32,000 bases of DNA. It comes from Methylophaga frappieri (GTDB lineage Bacteria > Pseudomonadota > Gammaproteobacteria > Nitrosococcales > Methylophagaceae). Every line of letters begins with the position of its first letter. Position 1 is the first letter of the stretch. Positions 2,864 through 22,754 of the stretch are shown one piece after another. The stretch covers positions 990,001 through 1,022,000 of the forward strand of contig NC_017856.1 in assembly GCF_000260965.1 (NCBI RefSeq), in the 5' to 3' direction. The notes under the pieces are model-generated. The model worked only from the letters and a program-made list of their open reading frames with translations. It did not search any database and was not told the origin of the DNA. The position numbers and the translations under genes are program-made.

Positions 2864-3246
2864 CGCACGCCCATGCTTTCCGTCTTTCCGTAAATCCGCT
2901 TTCCCACCTGTCCAGCCTCGCGCGGCTGCGCAGCCTGGCCCGCCCGGCGGGGCAAGGACTGCTGCTGGCCGCGCTGCTGCTGTTCCTGGCCGGAACGGCG
3001 CAGGCCGCCGGTTCCTCGATGCCGTGGGAAGGCCCGCTGCAATCCATTCTGGAGTCGATCCAGGGGCCGGTGGCGCGCATCGTCGCGGTCATCATCATCA
3101 TCGCCACTGGCTTGGCGCTCGCCTTCGGTGACACGTCGGGCGGATTCCGCAAGCTGATCCAGATCGTGTTCGGCCTGTCTATCGCGTTCGCGGCTTCGAG
3201 CTTCTTCCTGTCGTTCTTCAGCTTCTCCGGCGGGGCGGTCGTATGA
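2860..3246 (+). CDS. trbC: TrbC, VirB2-like pilin precursor
   Basis: 128 aa with a long leader ending AQAAG, followed by two hydrophobic helices (VARIVAVIIIIATGLALAF, IVFGLSIAFAASSFF). Sits between trbB and trbD. Confidence 0.75.
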   Translation: MTHAHAFRLSVNPLSHLSSLARLRSLARPAGQGLLLAALLLFLAGTAQAAGSSMPWEGPLQSILESIQGPVARIVAVIIIIATGLALAFGDTSGGFRKLIQIVFGLSIAFAASSFFLSFFSFSGGAVV

Positions 3247-3515
3247 GCGGGCCGGATAGCTTCGCGGCCGGCTTCGAGGTGCCGCTGCATCGCTCGCTGA
3301 CCGAGCCGCTTTTGATGGGCGGCGCGCCGCGTACCGTGGCGATTGCCAACGGCACGCTGGCCGCCGCCGTCGGGCTGGGCCTTCAACTCTGGATTCCCGG
3401 TGTCGTGCTCTGGATCGTCGGCCATTCGCTGGCCGTGTGGGGCGCGCGCGTGGATCCGCAGTTCATGCAGGTCTTCGCCCGGCACATCAAGCACAAGCCG
3501 CTGCTGGACGTGTGA
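3243..3515 (+). CDS. trbD: TrbD, VirB3-like inner-membrane protein
   Basis: 90 aa with the LHRSLTEPLLMGGAPR motif typical of VirB3/TrbD and hydrophobic segments. Overlaps the trbC stop. Confidence 0.75.
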   Translation: MSGPDSFAAGFEVPLHRSLTEPLLMGGAPRTVAIANGTLAAAVGLGLQLWIPGVVLWIVGHSLAVWGARVDPQFMQVFARHIKHKPLLDV

Positions 3516-3525
3516 GGGGGATGCC

Positions 3526-5958: not shown

Positions 5959-6698
5959 AAACCCAACCCCGTTTGCTGTCCGTCTCGCTCGCCGCAGTGC
6001 TGTCGGTGTCACTGTTGTCCGTTCAGCCTGCGTCTGCGCTGACGGTGTTCGACCCGTCCAACTTCGTGCAGAACACACTGACTGCCGTTCGCACCCTGGA
6101 GCAGATCAACAACCAGATCAACCAGCTTCAAAACGAAGCACAGATGCTGATGAACCAGGCGCGCAATCTGGCGAAGCTGGACTTCAACATCGTCAACCGG
6201 CTGCGCTCGACGCTCGCCACCACCGAACGCCTGATCGCCGAGGCGCAAGGGCTGGCTTTTGATGTGCAGAACATGGATGCCACGTTCTCGCGCCTGTACC
6301 CGGAGCAGTACGCCGCCACCATCAGCGGCGACCAGATGCTGCGCGATGCGCAGGAGCGCTGGAAAAACACGCTGAACGGCCTGCACACCGCGATGCGGAT
6401 GCAGGCGCAGGTGTCGCAGAACCTGGCCCAAGACGAAAGCGCACTGGCCGACCTCGTGAGCCAAAGCCAATCGGCCACCGGCGCACTGCAAGCCATGCAG
6501 GCAACGAACCAGCTTCTCGCCTTGCAGGCCAAGCAGTCCATCCAGGCCCAGCAGCTCCAGATCACGCAAGACCGGGCGGCCTCGCTGGAGCTGGCGCGGC
6601 AGGCGGCGGCGGTGGAACGCGGGCGCGAAGTGACCCGGCGCTTTCTGAGCAGCGGCACGCCGTACACGCCCGAGCGCGTGAATTTCTACGGGAACTGA
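5955..6698 (+). CDS. trbJ: TrbJ, VirB5-like periplasmic protein
   Basis: ATG 5955 has a GGAGG 7 nt upstream and an ATGA overlap with the trbE stop. Signal peptide MKTQPRLLSVSLAAVLSVSLLSVQPASA, followed by a Gln/Leu-rich coiled coil. Confidence 0.8.
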   Translation: MKTQPRLLSVSLAAVLSVSLLSVQPASALTVFDPSNFVQNTLTAVRTLEQINNQINQLQNEAQMLMNQARNLAKLDFNIVNRLRSTLATTERLIAEAQGLAFDVQNMDATFSRLYPEQYAATISGDQMLRDAQERWKNTLNGLHTAMRMQAQVSQNLAQDESALADLVSQSQSATGALQAMQATNQLLALQAKQSIQAQQLQITQDRAASLELARQAAAVERGREVTRRFLSSGTPYTPERVNFYGN

Positions 6699-6710
6699 CG
6701 AGGGGCTGCC

Positions 6711-8090
6711 ATGAACAACGTGACGGTCATTGATCGCTTCCTCGATACCTTCTCGCGCTACATCGACTCGGGCTTTGGACTGTTGCAGGGCGAAGTGGCG
6801 TTCCTGACCGCCACGCTGATCGTCATCGACATGACGATTGCCGGGCTGTACTGGGCGATGAGCCACGCCACTGGCCAGGGCGAGGACGTGATCGCCAAGC
6901 TGCTGCGCAAGGTGCTCTACGTCGGTGCCTTCGCCTACATCCTCAACAACTTCAACTGGCTGGCCGGCATCGTGTTCCGCTCCTTTGCCGGACTGGGTCT
7001 GACCGCATCCGGCTCGACCCTGACGATGGAGAACTTCCTTCAGCCGGGCCGATTGGCCAAAACAGGCATTGACGCGGCTGCGCCGCTTCTTGACCAGATC
7101 AGCGACATGGCGGGCTTCCCCGAAGTGTTCGTGAACATGACGCCCATCGTGGTCATGTTCCTGGCCTGGGCGATGGTGATCCTGTGTTTCTTCGTGCTGG
7201 CGATCCAGCTTTTTATCACCCTGATCGAATTCAAGCTGACCACGCTCGCGGGCTTCGTGCTGGTGCCGTTCGCGCTGTGGAACAAGACCAGCTTTCTGGC
7301 CGAAAAGGTGCTGGGCAATGTGGTGTCGTCGGGCATCAAGGTGCTGGTGCTGGCGGTGATCGTCGGCATTGGCTCTGGCCTGTTTGCTCAGTTCCAGGTG
7401 CATCCGGCCGAACCCTCCATTGACCATGCGCTGGTCATCATGCTGGCCGCGCTGACGCTACTGGCGCTGGGGATCTTCGGGCCGGGTATTGCTACCGGGC
7501 TGGTATCCGGTGCGCCGCAGTTGGGGGCTGGCGCCATGGCCGGTGCGGCCATTGGCGCAGCAGGAGCGGCGGTTGCCGTGGGGGCTGCCGCCACAGGGGT
7601 AGGAGGTGCCGTGATGGCCGGGGCAAGGATGGCACCGGCTGCTGCCAAGCTCGCAGGCGCTGGTGCGCGGGCCGCCACCTCAGCGGCTGGCAGCGCCAAG
7701 TCGGCATTTCAAGCCGGTTCCGCTGCTGCGGGCGGCGGTGCCAAAGGCGCGATGGCGGGATTGGGCAATGTTGCCAAGAGTGGTGCGCAAGCGGCTGGAC
7801 AACGCGCCAGTGCAGGCATCAAGTCAGCGGCAGCGAAGACGACTGCACCTTTCAAGGCAGGCTGGCAAGGCTCTAGCACAGATGGCGGCTCAGGTAGTAG
7901 CGCTGCAGCTTCCGGGCAAGCCGCCTCTGACGAAGCCAACTCTCAGAAGCAAGAACAACCCGGCTGGGCCAAGCGCCTGCATCGCCGACAACAACTCACC
8001 CAGGCCACTACGACTGCCGCGCACACGCTGCGCGGTGGCGACGGTGGTGGTTCGGGCCAAGGCCCAAGCCTGCGGGATTCCGATAGCTGA
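6711..8090 (+). CDS. trbL: TrbL, VirB6-like polytopic membrane protein with Ala/Gly-rich tail
   Basis: Multiple TM helices in the N-terminal 260 aa. The C-terminal 200 aa are low-complexity A/G/S-rich, as is usual for TrbL. Position is after trbJ. Confidence 0.8.
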   Translation: MNNVTVIDRFLDTFSRYIDSGFGLLQGEVAFLTATLIVIDMTIAGLYWAMSHATGQGEDVIAKLLRKVLYVGAFAYILNNFNWLAGIVFRSFAGLGLTASGSTLTMENFLQPGRLAKTGIDAAAPLLDQISDMAGFPEVFVNMTPIVVMFLAWAMVILCFFVLAIQLFITLIEFKLTTLAGFVLVPFALWNKTSFLAEKVLGNVVSSGIKVLVLAVIVGIGSGLFAQFQVHPAEPSIDHALVIMLAALTLLALGIFGPGIATGLVSGAPQLGAGAMAGAAIGAAGAAVAVGAAATGVGGAVMAGARMAPAAAKLAGAGARAATSAAGSAKSAFQAGSAAAGGGAKGAMAGLGNVAKSGAQAAGQRASAGIKSAAAKTTAPFKAGWQGSSTDGGSGSSAAASGQAASDEANSQKQEQPGWAKRLHRRQQLTQATTTAAHTLRGGDGGGSGQGPSLRDSDS

Positions 8091-8107
8091 TTTTCAAGGA
8101 GAACTCC

Positions 8108-8812
8108 ATGCGATTCAAACGACCGCAGGTGCGCTATGCCGATACGCCGCAGCCTGCCACCCCGTATCAAGCCGCAGCCCAGGTGTGGGACGAGCGCATC
8201 GGCTCGGCCCGCGTGCAGGCGAAGAACTGGCGGCTGATGGCCTTTGGCTGCCTGGTGCTCGCGCTGGTGATGGCCGGTGGCCTGGTGTGGCGCTCGGCCC
8301 AATCCATCGTCACGCCCTATGTCATCGAGGTCGATCAGTCCGGCCAGGTGCGCACTGTGGGTGAAGCGGCCACGCCGTACCGGCCCACCGATGCGCAGAC
8401 GGCGCACCACATCGCGCGTTTCGTGACGCTGGTGCGCTCGCTGTCCATCGACCCCATTGTCGTGCGCCAGAACTGGCTCGATGCCTACGACTACACCACC
8501 GACCGGGGCGCGGCGGTGCTCAACGACTATGCGCGGGTGAATGACCCGTTCGCCCGCATCGGCAAGGAATCGGTGACGGTGCAGATCACCAGTGTGGTTC
8601 GCGCCAGCGATGCATCGTTCAACGTGCGCTGGACGGAACGCCGCTACGTCAATGGCGCGGCTGCTGGCCTGGAGAGATGGACGGCGGTGGTGTCCATCGT
8701 GCAGCAGACCCCGCGCACCGAAGAGCGTCTGCGCCGCAACCCGCTAGGCATCTACGTCAATGGCCTGTCGTGGAGCCGTGAACTGGATTCTTCTGAAGGA
8801 GTGAAGCCATGA
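8108..8812 (+). CDS. trbF: TrbF, VirB8-like protein
   Basis: 234 aa with a single N-proximal TM (WRLMAFGCLVLALVMAGGLVW) followed by an NTF2-like domain pattern. AGGAGA RBS upstream. Confidence 0.8.
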   Translation: MRFKRPQVRYADTPQPATPYQAAAQVWDERIGSARVQAKNWRLMAFGCLVLALVMAGGLVWRSAQSIVTPYVIEVDQSGQVRTVGEAATPYRPTDAQTAHHIARFVTLVRSLSIDPIVVRQNWLDAYDYTTDRGAAVLNDYARVNDPFARIGKESVTVQITSVVRASDASFNVRWTERRYVNGAAAGLERWTAVVSIVQQTPRTEERLRRNPLGIYVNGLSWSRELDSSEGVKP

Positions 8813-9813
8813 ATGCACGTATCCGTAAAACCGCATTGCCGGTGATCCTGCTGGCATCGACTGTTCTGTTTGCGGGCTGCGCCACGCAGGGCAAACCGCC
8901 GCCGGTGATCTCGCTCGATGAGCCGGTGCAGGCCCAGCCACTGCCCGAGCCGCCCAAGCCCATCGAAGTGGTGGCAGTGCCCGAGCCGTTGGCATTGCCC
9001 GCACAGTTGAAGCCGCTGCCGGACGTTGATGCGGCCCCGACCACGCCGGAGCCTGCCGACGAGAAGGTGCGCGTCTCGCGTGCCAATGCTGAAGCACGGA
9101 TCGCGCCGACCCGTGAGGGCTACGTCAATGCGATCCAGGTCTGGCCTTTCACCGATGGCGCGCTGTACCAGGTCTATGCGTCCGTGGGCCGCGTGACGGT
9201 GATCGCGCTCCAACCCGGTGAGGAACTGGTGACGGTCGCTGCGGGTGACACAGTGCGCTGGATCGTGGGCGACACCTCCAGCGGCAGCGGGGCCGATCTG
9301 CGCGTCAATGTATTGGTGAAGCCTATCCGCTCTGGCCTGAAAACCAATCTGGTCATCACCACCAGCCGCCGCACCTATCTGCTGGAACTGACTTCGACCG
9401 ACAAGGCGTGGATGGCCTCAGTGTCCTGGGACTACCCGAAGGATCGGATGCTGGCCTTGCAGCGCCAGGCGCAGGCGGCCAGCGCCGCCGCGCCGGTCGA
9501 TGTGGGCCTGTCTTTGGAGAGCATCCGGTTTCGCTATGCGGTCAGCGGCAGCAATCCGCCGTGGAAACCGCTGCGCGCCTTCGATGACGGTGAGAAGGTC
9601 TATATCCAGTTCCCGGCAGGCATCGCCCAGGGCGAGCTGCCCCCGCTGTTTGTCATCGGCGCGCAGGGCGACGGGCAACTGGTGAATTATCGCTTCCGCT
9701 CGCCGTACTACATCGTGGATCGCCTGTTCGGTGCTGCCGAACTGCGTCTGGGAGCCGACAAGGGCGACGTAGTGCGCATCGAGCGCACGGATGGCGTCGC
9801 CGGGAGGAACTGA
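8809..9813 (+). CDS. trbG: TrbG, VirB9-like outer-membrane-associated protein (lipoprotein signal)
   Basis: Lipobox LFAGC after the signal peptide and a Pro-rich linker. Conserved VirB9 blocks are present (VTVIALQPGE, TNLVITTSRRTYLLEL, YIVDRLF). Confidence 0.85.
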   Translation: MNARIRKTALPVILLASTVLFAGCATQGKPPPVISLDEPVQAQPLPEPPKPIEVVAVPEPLALPAQLKPLPDVDAAPTTPEPADEKVRVSRANAEARIAPTREGYVNAIQVWPFTDGALYQVYASVGRVTVIALQPGEELVTVAAGDTVRWIVGDTSSGSGADLRVNVLVKPIRSGLKTNLVITTSRRTYLLELTSTDKAWMASVSWDYPKDRMLALQRQAQAASAAAPVDVGLSLESIRFRYAVSGSNPPWKPLRAFDDGEKVYIQFPAGIAQGELPPLFVIGAQGDGQLVNYRFRSPYYIVDRLFGAAELRLGADKGDVVRIERTDGVAGRN

Positions 9814-9815
9814 GC

Positions 9816-11093
9816 ATGAGCCAGGACGACATTCCCGACCTTGCCACGCCGCAGGCGGACAAGGTGGCTCCCGAGGCGGTGGCGCTACGCGCCCACCCGC
9901 GCCCGGTTACGCGCTTGAACCGGCGCACGCTGGCCATCCTCGCTGGTGGCTTGTCGGTCGGCGTGATGGGCGCACTGATCTGGTCGCTGCAACCGCAGCA
10001 ACGCGGCGCAGGCGAATCCACCGAGCTGTACAACGTGGATCGCGTGTCCAAGTCGGAAGGGCTGGATGCACTGCCGACGGATTACTCAAAGCTGCCAGCG
10101 CTGCCGCCAGATGTGCCGGAGCTGGGGCCACCGCTGCCGGGTGATCTGGGGCCAGCCATCGTCAATTCGCAACAGCCGGTCGCCGCTACCTATGCCGCGC
10201 CCGGCTACGACCCCAACGATGCGCTGCGCAAGGAGGAAGAAGCGGCTGCAGCTTCGTCGGTATTCTTCCGCACCGGCTCCCCGCAGGCTGCGCCCGTGGC
10301 GCAGTCACAAGTCGCTGCCGCACCGGGTTTTGCCGCCGATGCTGCTTTCGATCCGCTGGCCGGTGGCCCGGCCTCGACGGCGGCACAACCTGCCGATCCG
10401 ACTGCCGTGCAGAACCGGCAAGACCAGAAAGCGGCATTCCTGGCTGGCGGTTCTACAGAAACCCGTAATTCCGGCAATCTGCAAATGCCCACCTCGCCGT
10501 ATCAGGTGATGGCCGGAACGGTCATTGCCGGGGCACTGGTCACGGGCATCAAGTCCGACCTGCCGGGCGACGTGATCGCCACGGTGACGGAACCGATCTA
10601 TGACACGGCCACTGGCAAGTTCCTGCTGATCCCGCAGGGGTCGCGCATCCTGGGCAAGTACAACAGCCAGGTCAGCTATGGGCAGAGCCGCGTGCAGGTG
10701 GTGTGGAACCGCATCATCCTGCCCGATACGTCTTCACTCACGCTCGACAATTTGGTCGGTACTGATCCAGCAGGCTATGCCGGTCTGGAAGACGATGTGG
10801 ACTGGCATTGGGATCGGATCTTTGCAGGTGCCATCATGACCACGCTGCTGGGCGTGGGAGCCGAACTGGCTGCACCCGAGAACCGCCAGGATGGTGACCG
10901 CGTCATCATCGCCGGGCGCGACAGCTTGCAGGACACTGTGAACCAGGTCGGCCAGGAAGTGACCCGGCGCAACCTCAACATCCAGCCCACGCTGACGATC
11001 CGGCCTGGAATGCCGGTGCGTATCGTGATCGGCCGGGATTTGGTACTTCGCCCGTACCAGCCGCTGTTCTTCAATAAGGGGACTTCTCGATGA
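9816..11093 (+). CDS. trbI: TrbI, VirB10-like protein
   Basis: N-terminal TM, a long Pro/Ala-rich region, and a C-terminal beta-barrel domain with GTVIAGALVTGIKSDLPG and GYAGLEDDVDWHW motifs typical of VirB10/TrbI. Confidence 0.85.
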   Translation: MSQDDIPDLATPQADKVAPEAVALRAHPRPVTRLNRRTLAILAGGLSVGVMGALIWSLQPQQRGAGESTELYNVDRVSKSEGLDALPTDYSKLPALPPDVPELGPPLPGDLGPAIVNSQQPVAATYAAPGYDPNDALRKEEEAAAASSVFFRTGSPQAAPVAQSQVAAAPGFAADAAFDPLAGGPASTAAQPADPTAVQNRQDQKAAFLAGGSTETRNSGNLQMPTSPYQVMAGTVIAGALVTGIKSDLPGDVIATVTEPIYDTATGKFLLIPQGSRILGKYNSQVSYGQSRVQVVWNRIILPDTSSLTLDNLVGTDPAGYAGLEDDVDWHWDRIFAGAIMTTLLGVGAELAAPENRQDGDRVIIAGRDSLQDTVNQVGQEVTRRNLNIQPTLTIRPGMPVRIVIGRDLVLRPYQPLFFNKGTSR

Positions 11094-11311
11094 GCACAAC
11101 CAAAAAGCTGCGGCTCGGGCCGCTGCCCAAGACCGAAAACGTCAAACTGACCTTCACTTGCCCGGCAGGCCTGAAAGCAAACCTCGACCGCTACGCCGCG
11201 TTGCACGCGCAGGCGTATGGCGAGGCGGTCGATGCCGTGACCCTGATCCCGCACATGCTGGAGGCATTCATGGCAGGAGATCGGGGATTCAAGAAAGGAA
11301 TCAAGCCATAA
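11090..11311 (+). CDS. DUF2274-like small protein that commonly follows trbI
   Basis: 73 aa with an ATGA overlap with the trbI stop. KLRLGPLP...VKLTF..P..L...L..YA is the pattern I associate with DUF2274 (from memory). Confidence 0.55.
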   Translation: MSTTKKLRLGPLPKTENVKLTFTCPAGLKANLDRYAALHAQAYGEAVDAVTLIPHMLEAFMAGDRGFKKGIKP

Positions 11312-11515
11312 GGTAGCCCAACACCGAGCATTCACGATAAACTGAACGCATCTATGACCAAGAGGAAGCATTGGAGCGAGAAGACCGATAGTTCTATCAG
11401 CCTGACGTATCAACAGATTCAGAAGACCGAGAGAACCGTCCGAATGCTGGGTGAGATTCCCACTAACAACAAGCACCGTCCCGTAACCAACGCACAACAA
11501 ACCAAGGAGGTAACT

Positions 11516-11635
11516 ATGAAGAAAACAAACTTCAAACTTAGTTTCGTGGCAAGTTGGGCTGTGGCACTGTCGGTCTTCGTTGGCGCTGGAGGTGCACAGT
11601 ACATCTGTGCTCGATCCAATGCTTCTTCCTGTTGA
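11516..11635 (+). CDS. Possible 39-aa secreted/membrane peptide (MKKTNFKLSFVASWAVALSVFVGAGGAQYICARSNASSC)
   Basis: Strong AAGGAGG lies 6 nt upstream of ATG 11516. The N-terminus is basic and the core is hydrophobic. The ORF is followed by two hairpins. The longer track ORF from 11354 has no RBS. Confidence 0.3.
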   Translation: MKKTNFKLSFVASWAVALSVFVGAGGAQYICARSNASSC

Positions 11636-11666
11636 CATCTTGGGCTTCGGCCCACTGTTGACCTGA

Positions 11667-11697
11667 AAGAACGCGCAGCTCAACGCTGCGCGTTCTT
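11667..11697 (+). terminator. Rho-independent terminator closing the trb operon
   Basis: Perfect 13-bp stem AAGAACGCGCAGC / GCTGCGCGTTCTT with loop TCAAC, followed by a T-containing tail (TTCATTC). Confidence 0.6.
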
Positions 11698-11999
11698 CAT
11701 TCTAGAGGGATGGCGTCCTACTGGGCGATATTCAGCAAAAAAGTCTGCCGTCTGCTGGCAACCGTCCCCGATGCAGTACGACTTGGCCCACTACCCCGAC
11801 GCTCCCATGTGGCTCCTAGCCTACACTTCGGTCGCCCTGAAAAGCAATGCGAAATAGAGCTAACCCCCTGTCTCGTTTAAGCTTTTAGCTTCTTGGTGAT
11901 TTTCAGAATGAGCTTGACACCAGCCATTTTTTATTGCCAAAACATTGAAATAATAGGCAGAATGGCAAAATTTCTGTATATTACGTGCCAGATAAATTT

Positions 12000-12090
12000 A
12001 AGCCTCGGGGTGGTCGCAAGGCCTGAGATTCACCAATTGGTGTAGACCCGATGAACCTGATCCGGTTAATACCGGCGTAGGGACAGGCGG
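12000..12090 (+). promoter_or_regulatory. TPP (THI-box) riboswitch aptamer
   Basis: Conserved THI-box blocks read directly from the DNA: CUCGGGGUG ... GCCUGAGA ... ACCC ... GAACCUGAUCCGGUUAAUACCGGCGUAGGGA. P1 pairs GCCU (12002-05) with AGGC (12085-88). It lies 75 nt upstream of the receptor ATG. Confidence 0.9.
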
Positions 12091-12164
12091 CAACACCTCT
12101 CATTGCGATAACACGCTAATAATGTGATCCCACCTGTCCTTTTTGATTTTTTAAAAGGATAGCT

Positions 12165-15122: not shown

Positions 15123-15781
15123 TGCAAGCCGTTATTTTTGATATGGATGGGTTACTGATTGACTCAGAACCTTTCTGGAAACAAGCCGAAAAACGCGTTT
15201 TCACTTCCGTCGGTGTCAATATCACCGACGACCTCTCCGCCAAAACTATGGGCATGACCACCCGTGAAGCTACTATCTTCTGGCTAAATCATGCCGGTAT
15301 CTCGCTGTCACCAAAAGACATGGAAAAAGTCGAAAACGACGTAATTGATGAAGTCGCCATGCTCACTGCAAGCCAAGGCATCGCCCTGCCCGGTGTGCAT
15401 GACTTATTAGAAAAACTGCAGACTGAAAAACTAAAAATCGGCCTCGCCACCAACGCGCCAAGCAGATTAGTGCCCGTCGTTTTAAATCGGCTGGCGATTA
15501 CCGATTTTTTTGACTGCTATGTTGCCGATGAAGACGTCGAACAAGGCAAACCCCACCCAGCGATTTATCAGTTGGCACTCACCCGCCTCAATGCCAAACC
15601 CGAACATTCCCTCGCCTTTGAAGACTCTATTACCGGCATGACCGCCGCCATGAGCGCAGGCATCAAAACCATCGTCGTCCCTTCAAAAGCCAATTTCCAT
15701 TTACCCAAATATGATCTTGCCGTATTAAAGCTGGAGAGCTTGACCGAGCTGCCGCTGCGAACACTACAGAATTTATTTTAA
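15122..15781 (+). CDS. HAD-IA phosphatase (YniC/HxpB-like sugar-phosphate phosphatase family)
   Basis: TGATG overlap with the upstream gene. Motif I is IFDMDGLLIDSE. The motif II region reads GLATNA and motif III/IV reads K.....FEDS..G. The N-terminus matches the E. coli YniC pattern IFDMDGLLIDSEP.W. Confidence 0.8.
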   Translation: MQAVIFDMDGLLIDSEPFWKQAEKRVFTSVGVNITDDLSAKTMGMTTREATIFWLNHAGISLSPKDMEKVENDVIDEVAMLTASQGIALPGVHDLLEKLQTEKLKIGLATNAPSRLVPVVLNRLAITDFFDCYVADEDVEQGKPHPAIYQLALTRLNAKPEHSLAFEDSITGMTAAMSAGIKTIVVPSKANFHLPKYDLAVLKLESLTELPLRTLQNLF

Positions 15782-15946
15782 AGTGAATTGTAGTGTATAA
15801 AAGGCCTGAATAGCCTGTTTCAATTAGACAGCCAAAGTGTCGTGTTTTAGGTTTATTATTTACTTACAGGGAATAAGAGTCCTGATAAAAGTCAGATTTA
15901 TAGGGAATTTTTATTCCGGTTAATTACACTGTTAAGCACACAGGAA

Positions 15947-16789
15947 TTGAGAGGAAAAGTGAACCTTTATCATTACACTGACCAAAACGGGTTTCTTGGA
16001 ATACTAGAGAACAAGGAAATTTGGGCTACTAAAATCCAGTATTTGAACGACGCTAAAGAATACCATCTTGCGAAAGAAATTGCTGAACGAGCGTTGAAAT
16101 CATTGCTTAGAAATCCAGAGTATAAGAATGATCATTTCAGGATTGAAAGGTTTATATCTAATCTAGACAACTACATAGAAAACAACTTGTGTGTTTCTTC
16201 TTTTTCTGAGGAAGGCGATCTATTGAGCCAGTGGAGAGGTTATTCTAGCTCACAAGGCGGATATAGCATAGGATTCGAAAAAGAAGCACTTGAAAAAATG
16301 ATTAATGACGAAGAGTTTAATCTTGAAAAGTGCATATATAAAGAATCAGAGCAAGTAAGAAAAGTTTCAGATTTAATATTTGAATCTCTGGATAGGTTTC
16401 GTGGCTGTATAGAGCCGAATCAAGATTTTGTTGAAGGTTCTTCTGAGTCAACATCCTATTTTTTGGATAAATTGTCATATTTGTCGAGTTTTATAAAAGA
16501 TTCAAGCTTTAGCGAGGAAAAGGAATGGAGAATTGTTGCGCTTGTTCGGTTTGATGATCTTGACTTTCGACCTGGAAAGTCTTCTATTATTCCTTACAAA
16601 AAAATAAAAATTGAAGATTACCTTCCCGAGGTTGTCTCAGATATTTTTATTGGTCATACACCAAACCCTCAATTGGCGATTCAAGCAACAACATGCTTTT
16701 TGATCAAAAATTACCCAATGATGATTGGTAACTCTCTTGAGCATCCATTTTCTGTAAAGGAAAGCAAAATACCGTATAGAAGTTGGTAA
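15947..16789 (+). CDS. DUF2971-like protein of unknown function (start TTG 15947 or GTG 15959)
   Basis: LYHYT..NGFLGIL....IWATKIQYLNDAKE, then SFSEEGDLLSQWRGYS and KDSSFSEEKEWRIV. These are the three blocks I associate with DUF2971. The gene is very AT-rich (about 30-37 % GC in the lines I sampled). Confidence 0.6.
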   Translation: MRGKVNLYHYTDQNGFLGILENKEIWATKIQYLNDAKEYHLAKEIAERALKSLLRNPEYKNDHFRIERFISNLDNYIENNLCVSSFSEEGDLLSQWRGYSSSQGGYSIGFEKEALEKMINDEEFNLEKCIYKESEQVRKVSDLIFESLDRFRGCIEPNQDFVEGSSESTSYFLDKLSYLSSFIKDSSFSEEKEWRIVALVRFDDLDFRPGKSSIIPYKKIKIEDYLPEVVSDIFIGHTPNPQLAIQATTCFLIKNYPMMIGNSLEHPFSVKESKIPYRSW

Positions 16790-16859
16790 GCTTAACAAAA
16801 GGCTGTTGGCGGACGCACCTACGCTGCGCTCCGGCACGCCGCAAAGCCAAGCGTTAACC
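16790..16859 (+). repeat. attC-like (integron 59-be-like) imperfect palindrome
   Basis: Begins GCTTAAC (fits inverse core RYYYAAC) and ends GTTAACC (near core GTTRRRY). TTAAC/GTTAA pair, then a 4-nt unpaired spacer, then a GGCT-TTG-CGG-CG stem with bulged G and A. The core is GC-rich inside AT-rich DNA, and no T-tract follows. Confidence 0.5.
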
Positions 16860-16870
16860 GTAAATAGAAA

Positions 16871-17263
16871 ATGAACCTCTTAAAGAAAATAGTATTCATA
16901 TTATTAGCTCTAGTACTTGCTGGGGTAATTGGAGTTGTTACCACATTCTATTTTTTAACGGGTGACAGCCCCTTTAATGACAAAGAGTTCGATCAAAAAG
17001 TATGGTTATCAATGGATACTGACTGGGATCCAGACAATCCTAGAGGAAAGATGTACGAGGACATAGTCGATAATCACTTAGAAAAAGGAATGAGCAAGCA
17101 ACAAGTAGTCGATCTGCTTGGGCAGCCTGACTTAAAAAATAAGTCCCTGCTTTTTAGCTATAACTTAGGTATGTGGTCGGGATTCCGTATGGATTATGAC
17201 TCATTAGATTTGGTATTCAACTCTAGCGCCAATCTTGAAAAATTTTACAGAGTGCAGCATTAG
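16871..17263 (+). CDS. Membrane-anchored small protein with BamE/SmpA-OmlA-like C-terminal region
   Basis: N-terminal TM IVFILLALVLAGVIGVVTTFYFL. LEKGMSKQQVVDLLGQPD resembles the SmpA/OmlA fold signature. AT-rich. Confidence 0.5.
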   Translation: MNLLKKIVFILLALVLAGVIGVVTTFYFLTGDSPFNDKEFDQKVWLSMDTDWDPDNPRGKMYEDIVDNHLEKGMSKQQVVDLLGQPDLKNKSLLFSYNLGMWSGFRMDYDSLDLVFNSSANLEKFYRVQH

Positions 17264-17270
17264 TGTTCAC

Positions 17271-17366
17271 AGTTAACAAGGCCAACCAGCATGGTGTACT
17301 GCGTGCGCTGGACGGCCTTTCCGCGGCTTCGCCGCTCAAAGACTGCCGCTGGTGGCGTCATTAGAG
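17271..17366 (+). repeat. Second attC-like element (degenerate right core)
   Basis: Begins AGTTAAC. GCCA(A)CCAGC (17281-90) pairs with GCTGGTGGC (17348-56), leaving one bulged A. It ends ATTAGAG where GTTRRRY is expected. The centre is GC-rich. Confidence 0.35.
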
Positions 17367-17405
17367 GGCACAATATGATTCATCTTGTGGTTTTCGCGGC
17401 ACGTC

Positions 17406-17921
17406 ATGGGTAAGAAAAAAACGCTGACACAGGTCTCCTATGGGCTCGATACCCCGGAGGACCTGCTTGCTAAGTTCTTGCACGATGCTCAACGGATTGA
17501 TGTAGCGCCTCATCGGTATGACCTCTTTAATTTTTTTGTGACAGGGGCCGTACTACATGAGTGGTGCCGAAAGTATTTCAGGGATCACCCAATTTCTGGG
17601 CAGCTAGAAGGAGCAGCGGGGAGCAAGCCAAAGTTTGAGAGTCTCCCACCAAAGTCTGCAGAATGGATCACCGATAAATCATGCCTCCCAAATAAAGGAC
17701 AGGACGCAAGACGGCACATTGCCAATGCTCTTCGTATTTGTATCGAAACAGCCAATGCAAGCAAGCATTTTCACTGGTTTGATGGTAGTGGAGTATCGGC
17801 GATTCAAGACCAGCCTCAAGTCAAAGATTGGTACCAATACTACTTCACTTCTGTGGTGCCCGGCGTATATATCGAGTACAACAGCGAGTACTACACCGTA
17901 GAGCAGGTTCGAGACATCTAG
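17406..17921 (+). CDS. Hypothetical protein, about 171 aa, no recognisable family (alternative TTG start 17385)
   Basis: Long ORF at about 50 % GC, unlike its two AT-rich neighbours. The ATG at 17406 overlaps the stop of a 12-codon mini-ORF (17375-17413) that has its own GAGGG RBS. Confidence 0.45.
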   Translation: MGKKKTLTQVSYGLDTPEDLLAKFLHDAQRIDVAPHRYDLFNFFVTGAVLHEWCRKYFRDHPISGQLEGAAGSKPKFESLPPKSAEWITDKSCLPNKGQDARRHIANALRICIETANASKHFHWFDGSGVSAIQDQPQVKDWYQYYFTSVVPGVYIEYNSEYYTVEQVRDI

Positions 17922-17985
17922 GTGCAGTTCTTCAGCGGTCTTCTAGAACATGTTCGGGGCGAAAATGGATCATCACAAGATGTTC

Positions 17986-18004
17986 TCTAACTAAAGCGTT
18001 AACT
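17986..18004. repeat. Short palindromic junction carrying inverse-core-like TCTAAC and core-like GTTAACT heptamers 6 nt apart (possible collapsed attC)
   Basis: TCTAAC-TAAAGC-GTTAACT. The motif AAGCGTTAAC is shared with the 3' end of the 16790-16859 element. Confidence 0.2.
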
Positions 18005-18048
18005 CTTTTACAAATACAGCCAAGTAATTTTGTAGCAATCTGAAACCT

Positions 18049-18489
18049 TTAAAGCGCCCCACTGCAACGCATTTCAAAGAACCCATCATGACGTTTAAAG
18101 ACCCGATCTTTTTGGTTGGCATCTTTAAAATCCAATTCGTCCTCAGTAACCGACACATCGCTAAAAGTAATGCTTTTGGCTGAGTCAGATTCTTTATACA
18201 CATTGAAATCACTATAGGTTTTTGGCATTTGAACTAAGGATGTGCCATTTAACTCCCAGGTGCCAGTCTGTTCATCTACCCAAATTAATTTTTTTATCTC
18301 ACACAGCATTTTCAAAGACACATAAGTGTTATCCGCTTTTAGCTGAAGCAGCCACAGGGTCGACTCGGTGACATTATTATGAATTGTCGCATGCCATGTG
18401 CCGATGACTTCGTCATTGCTCGGATCGGCCTGTGCGGATAGCGAAAGCGATAAGATTGAAACAAGAAGTATCCACTTTGAAACTGTCAT
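18049..18489 (-). CDS. Secreted small beta-rich (lipocalin-like) protein of unknown function
   Basis: Signal peptide MTVSKWILLVSILSLSLSAQA. GTWHA and GTWELNG repeats are typical of lipocalin-like/META-type periplasmic domains. Confidence 0.5.
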   Translation of the reverse strand: MTVSKWILLVSILSLSLSAQADPSNDEVIGTWHATIHNNVTESTLWLLQLKADNTYVSLKMLCEIKKLIWVDEQTGTWELNGTSLVQMPKTYSDFNVYKESDSAKSITFSDVSVTEDELDFKDANQKDRVFKRHDGFFEMRCSGAL

Positions 18490-18724
18490 TTTTCTCTCTC
18501 ATTTTTTGGGATTGCTGCATTAAGCAACGGATAACTCAGGGTATGACTTGGTCAAAACCAGCCGTTTTTTTAACCATCATTACATGACACGCCAGTCAAT
18601 TCTAGTCTCACTTAATAGGACAGTGAAGTTTGAGGGATCGTAGCCGGACAGGGTTAAAAAGCGTAAGTATCTAATAGCGAGTGCACTGGGGCGCTTGCGG
18701 TAGGTGCCGAAAGGCAAGGCGAGA

Positions 18725-18752
18725 TAAAAAATAAGCGGCCATTACGGCCGCT
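18725..18752 (-). terminator. Rho-independent terminator of the siderophore receptor gene
   Basis: On the minus strand: AGCGGCC-GTAAT-GGCCGCT followed by TTATTTTTTAT, 24 nt after the receptor stop. Confidence 0.6.
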
Positions 18753-18775
18753 CATTTTGTCATGCTATGGCTGGC

Positions 18776-20884
18776 TTACCATTTGTGATTCAGGGTTGCC
18801 GTGATTTCACGACCCGGATTGTAGTAATCCGCCGTACCCGAGCCGACCACATGCTGGTCATCAAACAGGTTACGTACAAATAACGTAAAGTCTGTTCCTT
18901 GATAGAAGTGGTAGGTAAACGATCCATCTACGATAGTTGCAGATTCACTTTTTGCCGTGTTTGCAGTATCAAAGTAATACGAACCGGTGTAGCGCACCCC
19001 GAGACCAAAGCTGGCATAGCGATTTGGCAAGGTGTAGTGTCCCCAAACGGATGCCATATGTTTCGGCGCGGCAGTAAATTCTTTACCTTTGATTGAGGTG
19101 CCGCTACGCAGCGTGCCTTTGACCACCTCGGTTTCCATGTAAGAGTAGCCACCGGTCAGGCTGAATTGTTCGGTCAGGTCAATCTTGGCTTCAAAATCAA
19201 CCCCTTGCACTTCAGATTCGCCGATTGTTTCACGCTCAATAATGCCGTTTTCCTGAACAACGGCGATAGTGACATCATCTTTTTCCAGGTCATATACCGA
19301 GACAGAGAACAAGGCGTTTGTGTTAATCGGCGCGTATTTCATGCCGATTTCATATTGCTTGCCTCGCTCCGGTGTGACGCCAATACTTGGCGGCGCAACG
19401 GATTCCACCATGCTGATGTAGGTTGAGACTTCCTGATTCCATTTGTAGGTCAGGGCACCGCGGACAGAAGTTTCTGAGAAATCATCAGAAGATTTGAACC
19501 CGGTGATGTCGGTACTGGATAGATCCAGTCGATCATTTCTGACCCCACCTGTCACAATAAACTTGTCGTTAAATGAAAAATTTTGTTGTAAGAAGGCAGA
19601 CTTGGTTTTGTAATCACGATCATTGCGGCTGTAATAACTCAGGCTGCCCGGTGCACCACTGTATAAAGGGTTCGCAATATTAATCGGTGCGGCATCGCCA
19701 TAGAAGGATTGGTCTTCACTTGATGCATCACGATATTCAAGACCCGCCAAGGTACTGCTGTCGAAGTAGGTAAATTCTGCGTCGTATTGCAGGATAGCGT
19801 TACTGATAAATTCTTCTGCTTCGCCATCGGTGCCAAAGTAAAACCGTGACAGATCCGTGCCGGTACGGCCGGCAAAATCATACAAATAGATATAACCAAA
19901 ATCATCAGTCAGATCGCTGTAACGCATATTGGCTCGGAACAACAGGCCATTATCGAAATCATGGGTAAATTGACCGGTGACACTGGTACGTTCCACCTCA
20001 TGATAGTTAAAGGCAGATTCACCAAAAAACTCATCCCGATCGTACTCTCTATCCAGTGGGTAACCACCGCTGTTTGGCGAGCTATCACGATTCAGGTAAT
20101 CCAGAATCAGGGTTGCCGAGGTAAAATCTGTTGGCTCCCAGGTCAGGCCACCCATCACAAATTCGTTATCATTTTTTGAGTGATCGTATTCGCGATCACT
20201 ATCTTCAATTTTAGCGGTAAAGCGATAAGCGAGCGTGGCGTCCTCATTGAGGCTATCACCTAAATCCAAACCAACTTCTTTGTGGTCGAATGAGCCATAC
20301 GTGACATAGCCGCTGCCGAATTTTTCAAATTTTGGTCGTTTGCTGACAAAATTTACCGAGCCGCCCGGATCTGCCGGACCAAACAAGGTGGAATTCGCGC
20401 CTCTTAATACTTCGACCCGTTCATAAGCATACGCATCTTCACGAACACCACGCATTGACCCTAAGGTGAGACCATCACGATAAGTGGTGGCCTGAAAACC
20501 ACGAATTTGGAAATAATCATTGCGATCATCCGTACCATAGAAGTCAGTAATCACACCGGGGGTATATTCGAGTAACTCTTCCGTGGTGCTGACATTACGC
20601 TGTTCAATTTCTTTTTCGGTAATCACGGATACCGAGGCCGGCGTGTCCAGTACGCTGGTCGCGACTTTACCGCCAACCCAAAGCTCTTCAGCAACGATAT
20701 CATTAGCATCATCATCGACAGCATTGGCCTGCGCATTGACGATAATTGGCGTAAATCGATAGGTTTCGTTATCGCGTGCTTCTTCAGCATGAACAGCCAG
20801 TGATGCCGCCAATACAGGAGAACAAAGCAAGAGCGCTGCTTTATTCACATTGACGCGTTTAAACCGGGATTTTGTTTGAGACAT
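18776..20884 (-). CDS. TonB-dependent siderophore receptor
   Basis: 702 aa with a signal peptide ending AVHA. Plug motifs SVITEKEIEQRNVSTTEELLEYTPGV, IRGF and VEVLRGANSTLFG. The barrel ends ..LNHKW. Confidence 0.9.
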   Translation of the reverse strand: MSQTKSRFKRVNVNKAALLLCSPVLAASLAVHAEEARDNETYRFTPIIVNAQANAVDDDANDIVAEELWVGGKVATSVLDTPASVSVITEKEIEQRNVSTTEELLEYTPGVITDFYGTDDRNDYFQIRGFQATTYRDGLTLGSMRGVREDAYAYERVEVLRGANSTLFGPADPGGSVNFVSKRPKFEKFGSGYVTYGSFDHKEVGLDLGDSLNEDATLAYRFTAKIEDSDREYDHSKNDNEFVMGGLTWEPTDFTSATLILDYLNRDSSPNSGGYPLDREYDRDEFFGESAFNYHEVERTSVTGQFTHDFDNGLLFRANMRYSDLTDDFGYIYLYDFAGRTGTDLSRFYFGTDGEAEEFISNAILQYDAEFTYFDSSTLAGLEYRDASSEDQSFYGDAAPINIANPLYSGAPGSLSYYSRNDRDYKTKSAFLQQNFSFNDKFIVTGGVRNDRLDLSSTDITGFKSSDDFSETSVRGALTYKWNQEVSTYISMVESVAPPSIGVTPERGKQYEIGMKYAPINTNALFSVSVYDLEKDDVTIAVVQENGIIERETIGESEVQGVDFEAKIDLTEQFSLTGGYSYMETEVVKGTLRSGTSIKGKEFTAAPKHMASVWGHYTLPNRYASFGLGVRYTGSYYFDTANTAKSESATIVDGSFTYHFYQGTDFTLFVRNLFDDQHVVGSGTADYYNPGREITATLNHKW

Positions 20885-20974
20885 AAGTTTGCGTGTTCCT
20901 TAAAAATCGACAGATTATGTTGCTTTATAACAACAATTTTCTGGATTATAGACTTTTAACAACACACAATCAAT

Positions 20975-20993
20975 GCAAATGAGATTCAATTTT
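20975..20993. promoter_or_regulatory. Candidate Fur box upstream of the siderophore receptor
   Basis: GCAAATGAGATTCAATTTT matches 12/19 positions of GATAATGATAATCATTATC. It lies about 90-110 nt upstream of the receptor start in an AT-rich divergent promoter region. Confidence 0.35.
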
Positions 20994-21097
20994 ATTTAAA
21001 ATGGATAAGTTCAATTTATAAAATTAAATATTGAGCAAATGGCCGCAACATTCACGATATGATTGCGTTAAGTTAAAGCGCTTGGTGGAGAATCGCA

Positions 21098-21463
21098 TTG
21101 AAAAACCTCAAAACAATCGAACTGAAAGCTTTTATTCCCGCAAAAGACTATGCCCTATCAAAGCAGTTTTACGGTGATTTGGGTTTTACGATGGCATCAG
21201 ATACTAACGGCATTGCCTACTTTCATTTCGAATCATGCAGCTTTTTGCTGCAGGATTTTTATCAGCAGGAATTGGCAGAAAACCTGATGATGCATCTCTT
21301 GGTTGCTGACGCCAATGCCTGGCACCAGCACCTTACTGACATCGGTCTGGCTGAAAAATATGGGATCAAATTATCAAAAGTGAGTGCCCAACCTTGGGGT
21401 ATGCTGGATTTTGTCTTGGTAGATCCAAGTGGCGTGCTATGGCGATTTGGGCAAAATATTTAA
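21098..21463 (+). CDS. VOC/glyoxalase-bleomycin-resistance family protein
   Basis: 121 aa. TTG start with GGTGGAG 7 nt upstream. The beta-alpha-beta-beta-beta pattern (..FY.DLGF.., ..DPSGVLWRF) is typical of the family. Confidence 0.6.
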   Translation: MKNLKTIELKAFIPAKDYALSKQFYGDLGFTMASDTNGIAYFHFESCSFLLQDFYQQELAENLMMHLLVADANAWHQHLTDIGLAEKYGIKLSKVSAQPWGMLDFVLVDPSGVLWRFGQNI

Positions 21464-21488
21464 GAGTGAAATTTGATAGGTAGCCCTG

Positions 21489-21842
21489 ATGGTCTCAGAT
21501 GCGCTTTTTAACATGCCTTTTGCCAAGCTCTATGACTGTTACGTCAATAAAGCACTGCGCAAAAACCGAAATCAGGAAGACGTCGATACGATCATCTGTT
21601 GGCTGACCGGTTACGATTTAACGGGTTTACAGCGGCAGATTGCCAAGCAACATTCTGTCGCCCTGTTTTTTGACCATGCCCCGGCATTGCATCCTCAACA
21701 TACTGAGATTACCGGTGTCGTCTGTGGCGTTCGGGTTGAGCAAGTTTCAGATCCCTTAATGCGGAAAATACGTTATCTCGACAAACTGATTGATGAACTG
21801 GCCAAGGGTAAAACCATGCCACAAATTCTGCGTCAGGTTTGA
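21489..21842 (+). CDS. DUF2200-like protein
   Basis: F.MPFAKLYDCYVNKALRKNRNQEDVDTIICWLTGY matches the conserved N-terminal half of DUF2200 as I remember it. Confidence 0.5.
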   Translation: MVSDALFNMPFAKLYDCYVNKALRKNRNQEDVDTIICWLTGYDLTGLQRQIAKQHSVALFFDHAPALHPQHTEITGVVCGVRVEQVSDPLMRKIRYLDKLIDELAKGKTMPQILRQV

Positions 21843-21857
21843 GGTCTCACCAATAAA

Positions 21858-22754
21858 TTAGCTTTCATCAAACAAATTTGGCTGGCTCAGCCATTTATCC
21901 AAATCGGTTTCACCCAAAACATGCATCAAAAATAACAACAGCCGATAACTCAGCCTACAGGTTGATAAATCCGGCATCTCATGCGTTTCGCAATAGACTT
22001 CTTTAAATAAACGCGCTTGCTCAGACGTGAGCACAAACTCTAGCAACACCAGTTCCAATGTTTTCGGCGCAATGACATAGGCATCCAGATCCACCAAGGC
22101 ATACAACTCTGCATCATTGACCAAAAACTGATCCCAGCGCAGATCGGGCATGACGGCAACAAAAGGCGCTGGCCTTATGCTTTGTGACTCGCGCCAGACT
22201 TGATCTAACAAGGTCGGCGAAATGGTCAGCTTGGCGTGCTCAACCATGTATTGAATGGTTTGCCACAAACGAATTGGCCATTTATCAACCGCGAAGGTTG
22301 GCTTCGCCAAATTTCCCCACTGGCTAAAAGTCTGCTGGTGTAATGCCGTAATATGTCTTGCCAGCGTTCGAACCTGCTCCGCCGTGATCGCCGACTCATC
22401 AGGCATGTTACCGTTCAAAAACCGGCTTAGCATAAACCCTTTTGCGCTGGCGGCTAAACACTCTGGAATAGCCAATCTGCCGTGTTGCTGCAAAAAGGCA
22501 ACCACCGACATCATCTGATTTAATGATGCCGGAAAGTTCATTGCAAATAGGCGGTTCATCCCCTGCCAGAATGCCGACTGACGAATTTGTCGGGTATCAC
22601 AAACCTTTAAAATCGCTGGTCCAGAAACGGTTTCACAACGCCAAAGTTGATGCGTACTATCCGCATACCGTTGCGGTAAGGCAATGGCAGGTGCCGTCAG
22701 CACTGGCAGCGTTCGTTGTTGAACGGCAGCCAGTGCCGGATAGGCGTTTACCAA
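21858..22754 (-). CDS. Divergent protein-kinase-fold / aminoglycoside-phosphotransferase-like protein
   Basis: AILKV (beta-3 Lys). A catalytic-loop-like MPDLRWDQFLV sits where APH has HGDLHPGN. LVDLDAY is the metal-binding DxD/DFG equivalent. The TTG start overlaps the SDR stop by 7 nt. Confidence 0.5.
   Translation of the reverse strand: MVNAYPALAAVQQRTLPVLTAPAIALPQRYADSTHQLWRCETVSGPAILKVCDTRQIRQSAFWQGMNRLFAMNFPASLNQMMSVVAFLQQHGRLAIPECLAASAKGFMLSRFLNGNMPDESAITAEQVRTLARHITALHQQTFSQWGNLAKPTFAVDKWPIRLWQTIQYMVEHAKLTISPTLLDQVWRESQSIRPAPFVAVMPDLRWDQFLVNDAELYALVDLDAYVIAPKTLELVLLEFVLTSEQARLFKEVYCETHEMPDLSTCRLSYRLLLFLMHVLGETDLDKWLSQPNLFDES

Follow-up and report, generated by a model that had tools for sequence, protein, structure and literature searches.

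The locus and the question

How did three small, co-directional genes come to lie between a thiamine operon and a siderophore receptor gene in the chromosome of Methylophaga frappieri, and are the GC-rich imperfect palindromes that follow the first two of them integron recombination sites? The genes lie at 15931-18004 of a 32,000-nucleotide stretch of contig NC_017856.1 (positions 990,001 to 1,022,000), which we call the window and from whose first letter all coordinates are counted. A first-pass annotation had proposed that this part of the window is an array of gene cassettes, each consisting of a gene and an attC site, with no integron integrase (IntI, encoded by intI). Our analysis suggests that this is probably correct, and that 15931-18004 is a short integron cassette array stranded in the M. 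frappieri chromosome without an integron integrase. The palindrome behind the first gene is an attC site, and the first unit is a genuine mobile cassette with no integrase in the window; the second and third units are probably former cassettes with decayed attC sites. Thus, one intact cassette is likely followed by two fossil ones. The features on which the argument depends, including the open reading frames (ORFs) and the two palindromes (El1 and El2), are as follows.

15782-15930: left flank, AT-rich (33% GC), between the stop codon of a gene for a haloacid dehalogenase (HAD) family phosphatase and the first crossover
15931-15937, + strand: left crossover core GTTAAGC (G/TTAAGC, the slash marking the crossover); TTAAGC forms the first six bases of cassette 1
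15932-16853, + strand: cassette 1, DUF2971 gene and attC site, 922 bp, 37% GC against about 48% in neighbouring host genes
15959-16789, + strand: ORF1, DUF2971, 276 amino acids, GTG start after the ribosome-binding site GAGAGGAAAA; the longest reading frame begins with TTG at 15947
16790-16859, + strand: El1, attC site of cassette 1, 61% GC, its first base immediately following the ORF1 stop codon
16854-17360, + strand: putative cassette 2, 507 bp, 42% GC, with the El1 crossover as its left boundary
16871-17263, + strand: ORF2, 130 amino acids, with an N-terminal hydrophobic segment and a match to Pfam BamE (E 2.6e-4) under the family cutoff
17271-17366, + strand: El2, degenerate attC-like element, 60% GC, beginning 8 nt after the ORF2 stop codon
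17361-17998, + strand: putative cassette 3, 638 bp, 48% GC
17406-17921, + strand: ORF3, 171 amino acids, no known family; the longest reading frame begins with TTG at 17385
17985-18004, + strand: relic, CTCTAAC-TAAAGC-GTTAACT, 20 nt, retaining an inverse core and a core but neither L boxes nor centre

Much of the layout is as the first-pass annotation had described it. The three co-directional reading frames are there (15947/15959-16789, 16871-17263 and 17385/17406-17921), as are the core GTTAAGC before the first of them and, at 17986-18004, the motif TCTAAC-N6-GTTAACT after the third. The cassette sizes that it had given as about 920, 510 and 640 bp agree with those measured, and its GC values per gene (about 33, 35 and 50%) are close to the 35.0, 37.9 and 48.3% that we obtained for the ORFs.

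An attC site and a mobile cassette behind the first gene

The 5′ half of El1 consists of an R'' box (GCTTAAC), a spacer (AAAA) and an L'' box (GGCT(G)TT(G)GCGG), followed by a variable centre, and its 3′ half of an L' box (CCGCAAAGCC), a spacer (AAGC) and an R' box (GTTAACC), with the crossover between G16853 and T16854. IntI enzymes cut the hairpin of the attC bottom strand between G and TT, and the bottom (−) strand of El1 would be expected to fold into such a hairpin, with an R box, an unpaired spacer and an L box carrying two bulged bases. In the model alignment, the 5′ half shows two G bulges that are conserved across the family of El1 relatives described below. Extrahelical bases in this half mark the recombinogenic bottom strand of attC sites, on which they are usually T or G; in El1 they are C.

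The covariance models that we used were home-made from attC sites lying beside intI genes, and two of them, R1 and R2, contain no relatives of El1. The starting material was 80 metagenome loci that carry intI1-type integrases and were retrieved with an IntI1 query, itself validated by a score of 799 bits against NCBIfam PRK15417; ten attC sites of 57-66 nt from the arrays of these loci, with the R-box and L-box pairs set by hand, served as the seed of R1. In the 80 loci, R1 found 122 sites at E <=0.1, all of them (122/122) on the array side of intI, and R2 was built from the 77 best of the R1 sites. When the window was searched with both models and the filters off, the best match of each was exactly 16790-16859, on the + strand and at full length, with 20.4 bits for R1 (E 4e-3) and 24.9 bits for R2 (E 9e-4 for 32 kb), and 4.1 bits on the − strand. 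Scaled to 2.7 Mb, the E-value of R2 becomes about 0.08, and its calibration looks reasonable, with six matches at E <=10 against the roughly 10 expected by the definition of an E-value. Bona fide attC sites in annotated integrons score from 13 to 62 bits with R2, the family of El1 itself from 19.8 to 23.8, and the dfrA1 and catB sites 13; El1 is thus a normal true positive of a model that is not very sensitive. R3, a third model in which sites of marine type and of the El1 family are better represented, gives El1 49.6 bits, which is not independent evidence because the model contains relatives of El1. For comparison, a search of 1.5 Mb of control loci with the default filters of Infernal matched only a Treponema cassette array and an attC-like site beside an ORF3 homologue, both of which are taken up below.

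Sequence comparison leads to the same identification. In a blastn search of the region against 72,556 plasmids, El1 alone found matches. One, at 88% identity, is the site that immediately follows both bla cassettes in a plasmid integron of Marinobacter sp. SBY-1 (NZ_CP152381), for which an integron integrase is annotated. The class 1 integron of E. coli pEc98_2 (NZ_CP024094) has, between dfrA1 and qacEdelta1, a cassette whose attC site matches El1 at 85%, and Thiolapillus pTBH10 has a site that matches it at 83%. Within this family, homology spans the interval from TAAC of the inverse core to GTTA of the core, with unrelated flanks, the L stem is 97% paired, and El1 retains every invariant position, including GTT. 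The attC architecture that had been claimed for 16790-16859 is therefore borne out, as the element is both the top match of the attC models and a homologue of sites in real integrons.

The boundaries of the cassette can be drawn to the base. The closest homologue of ORF1 (93% amino acid identity) lies on a metagenome contig (L181) among small co-directional ORFs that encode HNH, PIN and other proteins. This contig is 95% identical in DNA to the window over 15931-16856 exactly, from the G of GTTAAGC to the GTTA of El1, with no identity outside. To the left of the match, it has another attC site whose end reads GAGGC followed by GTTAAGC, and to the right a different cassette starting with TTATAGC, whose own attC site begins with GCTATAAC. 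The limits of the match and the differing neighbours fix both ends of cassette 1 to the predicted G/TT crossover points. Given the covariance models, the homologous attC sites in intI-linked arrays and the presence of the same cassette in L181, cassette 1 is a discrete and mobile unit with a bona fide attC site.

The same searches also touched several other loci. On the 10.5 kb plasmid pTBH10 of Thiolapillus brandeum (locus L191), attC matches of 50, 29 and 20 bits stand at 2868-2927, 4142-4247 and 5005-5074, between IS91 and IS21 transposase genes and with no integrase annotated in the 5.6 kb viewed; this looks like a plasmid-borne cluster of attC sites lacking integrase (CALIN). In a contig of a Treponema metagenome-assembled genome (L046), which entered the analysis for its HAD-family gene alone, that gene is itself followed by a strong attC site (34 bits, 2181-2298), with two further matches upstream at 1276-1387 and 67-130; this is a cassette array in a spirochaete. 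The second-best match of the attC models in the window, at 29846-29885 (GTTTAAC...GCGTTAAAT, 14 bits, E about 0.25), has paired R boxes and no L boxes, lies inside a long reverse-strand ORF and is probably due to chance. Finally, repeats in loci L182-L185 were tried as collapsed attC sites and rejected, being better read as dif-like Xer sites. In L182, a 63%-identical ORF1 homologue is found amid repeated dif-like sites of the form CTGCGCATAA-CGCATG-TTATGTAA (about 1004-1190, 2839-3182 and 4014-4393), which adjoin GTTCGCTA...TAGCGAAC hairpins and have BrnT/BrnA toxin-antitoxin pairs around them; its units look like Xer-dependent modules and not like integron cassettes.

Two units with decayed sites

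As read from the sequence, with a single bulged A placed by eye, the 5′ part of El2 comprises an R'' box (AGTTAAC), a spacer (AAG), an L'' box (GCCA(A)CCAGC) and a 53-nt branched centre, and its 3′ part an L' box (GCTGGTGGC), a spacer (GTC) and an R' box (ATTAGAG, 17360-17366) in which the crossover G is replaced by A. The centre of El2 (17310-17347) is 84% identical, in the same orientation and at a marginal E of 0.08, to the centre of the attC site of a catB cassette in a class 1 integron, and a small hairpin within it shows a compensatory GCGGC/GCCGC swap. The crossover GTT is present in El1 (GTTAACC) and in the relic (GTTAACT) and missing from El2 (ATTAGAG). If these elements descend from attC sites, El2 would have lost its crossover G, and the third site would have shrunk to 20 nt in which only the inverse core, a spacer and the core are left, plausibly by a hairpin deletion that removed the L boxes and the centre.

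A further argument comes from the register of the cores. The final six bases of every core in an integron array are part of the cassette that comes next, and for this reason the inverse core of an attC site should find its best pairing at the start of its own cassette. All three units behave in this way. The R'' of El1 (GCTTAAC) complements GTTAAGC at 15931 without a mismatch (7/7), that of El2 (AGTTAAC) pairs at 6/7 with GTTAACC at 16853, and that of the relic (CTCTAAC) pairs at 6/6 with TTAGAG at 17361, whereas pairing with the adjacent core reaches only 6/7, 3/7 and 4/7 for cassettes 1 to 3. The chance probability of the exact matches for cassettes 1 and 3 jointly is about 0.003, and the same rule holds in the L181 array, which served as a positive control. 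A 7/7 match of the R'' of El2 to B3 is due to the shared palindrome GTTAAC, and we gave it no weight. Together with the register rule and the partial catB match, the 10-mer AAGCGTTAAC, which in the window occurs only at the 3′ end of El1 and in the relic, leads us to read units 2 and 3 as cassettes with decayed sites; with such sites, they would now be fixed in place. The steps in GC content from ORF to ORF (35, 38 and 48%) count in favour of cassettes as well.

Several results weigh against this reading, beyond the marginal E-value of the catB match. Neither El2 nor the relic is matched by R1, R2 or R3, even in a local search of 821 bp, where the best partial scores were 5.0-6.4 bits; no fold was found for the relic, which is too short for a covariance-model test. 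No second copy of cassette 2 or 3 in another context turned up in blastn and tblastn searches against plasmids, none of the ORF2 homologue contexts examined is attC-linked, and the homologues of ORF2 and ORF3 stand mostly in ordinary chromosomal contexts. The register test was devised after the sequence had been seen. On the side of the models, these are biased to class-1-type sites and their E-values are rough, El1 itself was dropped by the default filters of Infernal in the 1.5 Mb run, and El1 and El2, folded as single strands, show no more stability than shuffled sequences (z = +0.1 to −1.2). The absence of intI, discussed below, covers about 16 kb to the left of the array and 14 kb to its right.

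The alternative that survives these considerations best is that the DUF2971 gene and El1 came in alone, as an insertion of the type known as a single attC site lacking integrase (SALIN), and that the rest (ORF2, El2, ORF3, relic) was acquired horizontally and has no connection with it, its likeness to attC sites being a coincidence. We regard this as unlikely, though it deserves to be taken seriously: El1 alone passes an attC model, the homologues of ORF2 and ORF3 are found mainly outside integrons, cores of the form GTTRRRY are no more frequent than chance would have them (42 copies in the window against 52 expected), and SALINs outnumber CALINs in genomes, 3400 to 2961 (Loot et al., bioRxiv 10.1101/2022.09.11.507474). 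It would, however, leave to coincidence the complementarity of the inverse cores of El2 and the relic to their own unit starts, the 10-mer common to El1 and the relic, the fact that three of the five GTTAAC sites in the 32 kb fall at predicted junctions, the match of the El2 centre to a real attC site in the right orientation, and the presence of a block of 60% GC just 8 nt past the stop codon of a gene of 38% GC.

The CALIN label needs at least two detectable attC sites (Cury 2016, PMC4889954), and only one site at this locus passes our home-made models R1-R3, with no match other than El1, which accompanies ORF1, in 15700-21900. The first-pass annotation, which had spoken of a CALIN-type cluster, was thus right about integron-type cassettes without an integrase as far as the first unit is concerned, while its label is not fully supported; in formal terms, the locus is a SALIN, with its one detectable attC site, or a degenerate CALIN. 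Likewise, the motifs and coordinates that it gave for an attC site at 17271-17366 with a decayed core ATTAGAG are correct, while the lack of a covariance-model match is the very outcome that it had named as counting against such a site.

The missing integrase, the left junction and expression

No IntI-like ORF was found in the 32 kb window by tblastn of IntI1 in six frames (best E about 5), which agrees with the earlier observation that no intI is visible; the customary distance for calling an integrase absent from the vicinity of a CALIN or SALIN is 4 kb in IntegronFinder, with pseudogenes searched for within 10 kb. The left flank (15782-15930) contains no attC match and no AAC-type inverse core. 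It carries the direct repeats TTACAGGGAAT/TTATAGGGAAT at 15864 and 15898, which were considered as possible attI repeats. It is possible that the flank represents either the target-site side of the insertion or a remnant of attI. A complete integron, in which intI is accompanied by an adjacent attI site and a Pc promoter, is not what the locus holds, with neither an intI gene nor a promoter match on the + strand in 15782-15946. As the interval from the HAD gene to ORF1 gave no terminator match either, the cassette genes are likely transcribed by read-through from the operon upstream, which is headed by a thiamine pyrophosphate (TPP) riboswitch.

It might be asked whether the array is nevertheless alive, as a satellite of a complete integron or of an In0 element elsewhere in the genome or on the adjacent conjugative element, with IntI excising cassette 1 in trans. 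For instance, El1 keeps all the positions that are invariant in its family, GTT included, a type IV secretion module of the kind found in integrative and conjugative elements (ICEs) lies 4 kb upstream, and half of the CALINs are found in replicons that encode IntI, and CALIN cassettes may be mobilised in trans (Cury 2016, PMC4889954). Still, we think this improbable, as the window has no IntI-like ORF, the model search found no partner attC site to the left of cassette 1, and El2 lacks the crossover G.

The stranded array may have arrived when IntI recombined it into a secondary genomic GTT site, or it may be a fragment of a larger integron that lost its intI gene (Cury 2016, PMC4889954); insertion by IntI at secondary genomic GTT sites has been demonstrated experimentally (Loot et al.). 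A more ambitious proposal is that the three units form a time series of cassette domestication, from a live attC site through one with a dead crossover to a 20-nt R''-spacer-R' scar, all of them directly behind a TPP-riboswitch operon without a terminator in between. We consider this doubtful. If it were true, promoterless cassettes, including a DUF2971 gene that resembles the candidate defence family PDC-S31, would have come under thiamine control, and the collapse of the hairpin would be a regular route from integron cassette to fixed chromosomal gene.

Repeats and terminators as alternatives

Two further explanations dispense with integrons altogether. The palindromes could be dispersed elements of the repetitive extragenic palindromic (REP) or bacterial interspersed mosaic element (BIME) type, or other host-specific intergenic repeats, and, like many REPs, they are GC-rich, imperfect and located just downstream of genes. 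This seems very improbable: El1 and El2 are dissimilar, the relatives of El1 are attC sites of cassettes in unrelated hosts (plasmids of E. coli, Marinobacter and Thiolapillus), and no further copy of El1, El2 or the relic occurs in the window or at three Methylophaga loci, so that the dispersed copies that the first-pass annotation had named as speaking for repeats did not appear within that scope. That El1 and El2 serve the three genes as terminators or attenuators of transcription, as stem-forming GC-rich sequences right after stop codons might suggest, can be set aside, since there is no T tract at either palindrome (as had been noted), a terminator scan is blank at both, they fold no better than shuffles, and the sequence family of El1 is that of attC sites.

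The genes carried by the array

The description of the three genes as orphans has to be revised for the first of them. ORF1 matches Pfam PF11185 (DUF2971) at E 2e-14 and has more than 2000 homologues (n=2086), the closest of which, the one that is 93% identical, likewise has 276 amino acids. It also has a weak match (E 5e-7) to the PADLOC candidate defence family PDC-S31, and in Vibrio cholerae (L186/L187, 4457-6810) a DUF2971 homologue stands directly behind the Thoeris genes ThsA/ThsB, which hints that cassette 1 may encode an anti-phage function.

For the other two genes, 30 homologues (ORF2) and 20 homologues (ORF3) were found. Both sets contain an M. frappieri protein with 100% identity, which for ORF3 is 171 amino acids long, and tblastn searches of both against plasmids gave distant BamE matches or nothing. 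Array-like neighbourhoods of an ORF2 homologue (L083) and of an ORF3 homologue in Halomonas (L086) were considered as well, and neither R2 nor R3 matched an attC site in them, so that they play no part in the argument. One lineage of ORF3 homologues (L087) has an attC-like element of 34 bits just upstream of the gene. In these loci (L087-L092), the element lies at about 5890-5949, between a 105-amino-acid ORF and the ORF3 homologue, and its core is GCTATGG and not GTT...; the unit is wedged between dxs and tlyA of an uncultured lineage, and in a second lineage (L180) a different small ORF occupies this place. Apparently, this is another integrase-less cassette that has become fixed inside a core gene cluster.

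Chromosomal setting

The surroundings of the array include the following features.

11996-12101: TPP riboswitch (76 bits in the Rfam scan), heading the operon that ends with the HAD gene
18049-18489, − strand: lipocalin-like ORF, 146 amino acids, 41.5% GC, with a signal-peptide-like N terminus and a weak match to GH43_C (E 8e-4)
18776-20884, − strand: FhuA/FoxA-like siderophore receptor
21098-21463: glyoxalase/bleomycin-resistance-like gene
21489-21842: DUF2200 gene

After the riboswitch, the operon contains genes for a TonB-dependent receptor, a YkoF-like protein, a PnuC-like transporter and the HAD phosphatase. The counterpart of the convergent gene at 21858-22754 of the window stands no more than about 15 bp past the HAD gene in three other Methylophaga genomes. 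Given that these two genes nearly abut in the relatives, we take the whole stretch 15782-21857, 6.1 kb that are missing from the three genomes, as extra DNA in M. frappieri; it holds the three small ORFs of the array, the reverse lipocalin-like ORF and the last three genes listed above. The comparison with related genomes that had been suggested for this locus thus shows a difference, which concerns the whole 6.1 kb and not the cassettes alone. Similarly, the array had been described as sitting in an operon gap between a thiamine operon and a siderophore receptor, which is only partly right, as the receptor is itself absent from the locus in the three relatives. Atypical GC content is confined to the first 2.7 kb of the extra DNA, where the four small ORFs have 35, 38, 48 and 42% GC against about 47-49% around them.

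Two further observations concern the neighbourhood. The reverse lipocalin-like ORF comes directly after the relic, between the array and the receptor. On the other side, a conjugative type IV secretion module occupies 82-11093 and includes a TraG coupling protein, a CopG-like protein, a TrbB-like ATPase, the TrbC pilin, TrbE, TrbL, VirB8, CagX/TrbG and TrbI. The part of the window from 5001 to 12001 has no nucleotide homology to the Methylophaga relatives, and an ICE-like element seems to end just left of the TPP riboswitch. In the Rfam scan of the window, which relies on a collection without an attC family, only the TPP riboswitch and a 5S rRNA were found.

Significance and comparison with known systems

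As an integron remnant, the locus is of an ordinary and well-described kind, and its novelty is low. Cassettes without an integrase are common, with thousands of SALINs and CALINs in RefSeq genomes, and its interest is accordingly modest. It does add a case in which a further copy of a cassette, within a different array, places the cassette boundaries to the exact base, it links the attC family of a clinical class 1 integron to the chromosome of a marine methylotroph, and it illustrates how attC sites may decay once the integrase is gone. It also carries a warning, in that the thresholds of covariance models turn such degenerate arrays into single sites.

Several known systems invite comparison. 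Like the sedentary chromosomal integrons, of which the Vibrio superintegron is an example, the locus is a chromosomal array of small genes of mostly unknown or defence-like function, and the order of R'' box, 4-nt spacer, 4 bp and bulge in El1 presumably resembles that of Vibrio-type repeats. Unlike them, it comprises three units only, its attC sites are mutually dissimilar rather than homogeneous, and no intI was found.

There is a likeness to CALINs as described by Cury (2016, PMC4889954): the cassettes are co-directional and promoterless, they have attC sites with no intI nearby, they encode functions that are not known instead of resistance, and the array is small, as are the 83% of CALINs that have fewer than six sites. 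The difference is that the M. frappieri array has one detectable attC site only.

In this respect, it is more like the SALIN/attG insertions, in which IntI has put isolated cassettes at genomic GWT sites (Loot et al.). As in these, a single detectable attC site accompanies a coding sequence with no other att site or integrase detected nearby, the left junction is a bare G/TT in AT-rich intergenic DNA without attC features, and upstream of the cassette there is a host operon that could drive its expression. The right-hand motif CRGM, reported by Loot et al. for IntI1 in E. coli, is not seen, the sequence after GTTAAC being TCTT. As two further cassette-like units follow the first, which is not the case in SALIN/attG insertions, an insertion of several cassettes at once, or serial insertions at a resident attC site, would have to be assumed.

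At the level of the site itself, El1 belongs to one sequence family with the attC sites of pEc98_2 and Marinobacter SBY-1, to which it is 85-88% identical over about 69 nt. All three sites have identical L boxes (GGCTGTTG.CGGAC...GCCGCAAAGCC) and 4-nt spacers and are oriented alike relative to their genes. What differs is the context, as the two plasmid sites belong to other genes and adjoin an integrase, whereas El1 follows a DUF2971 gene in a chromosome.

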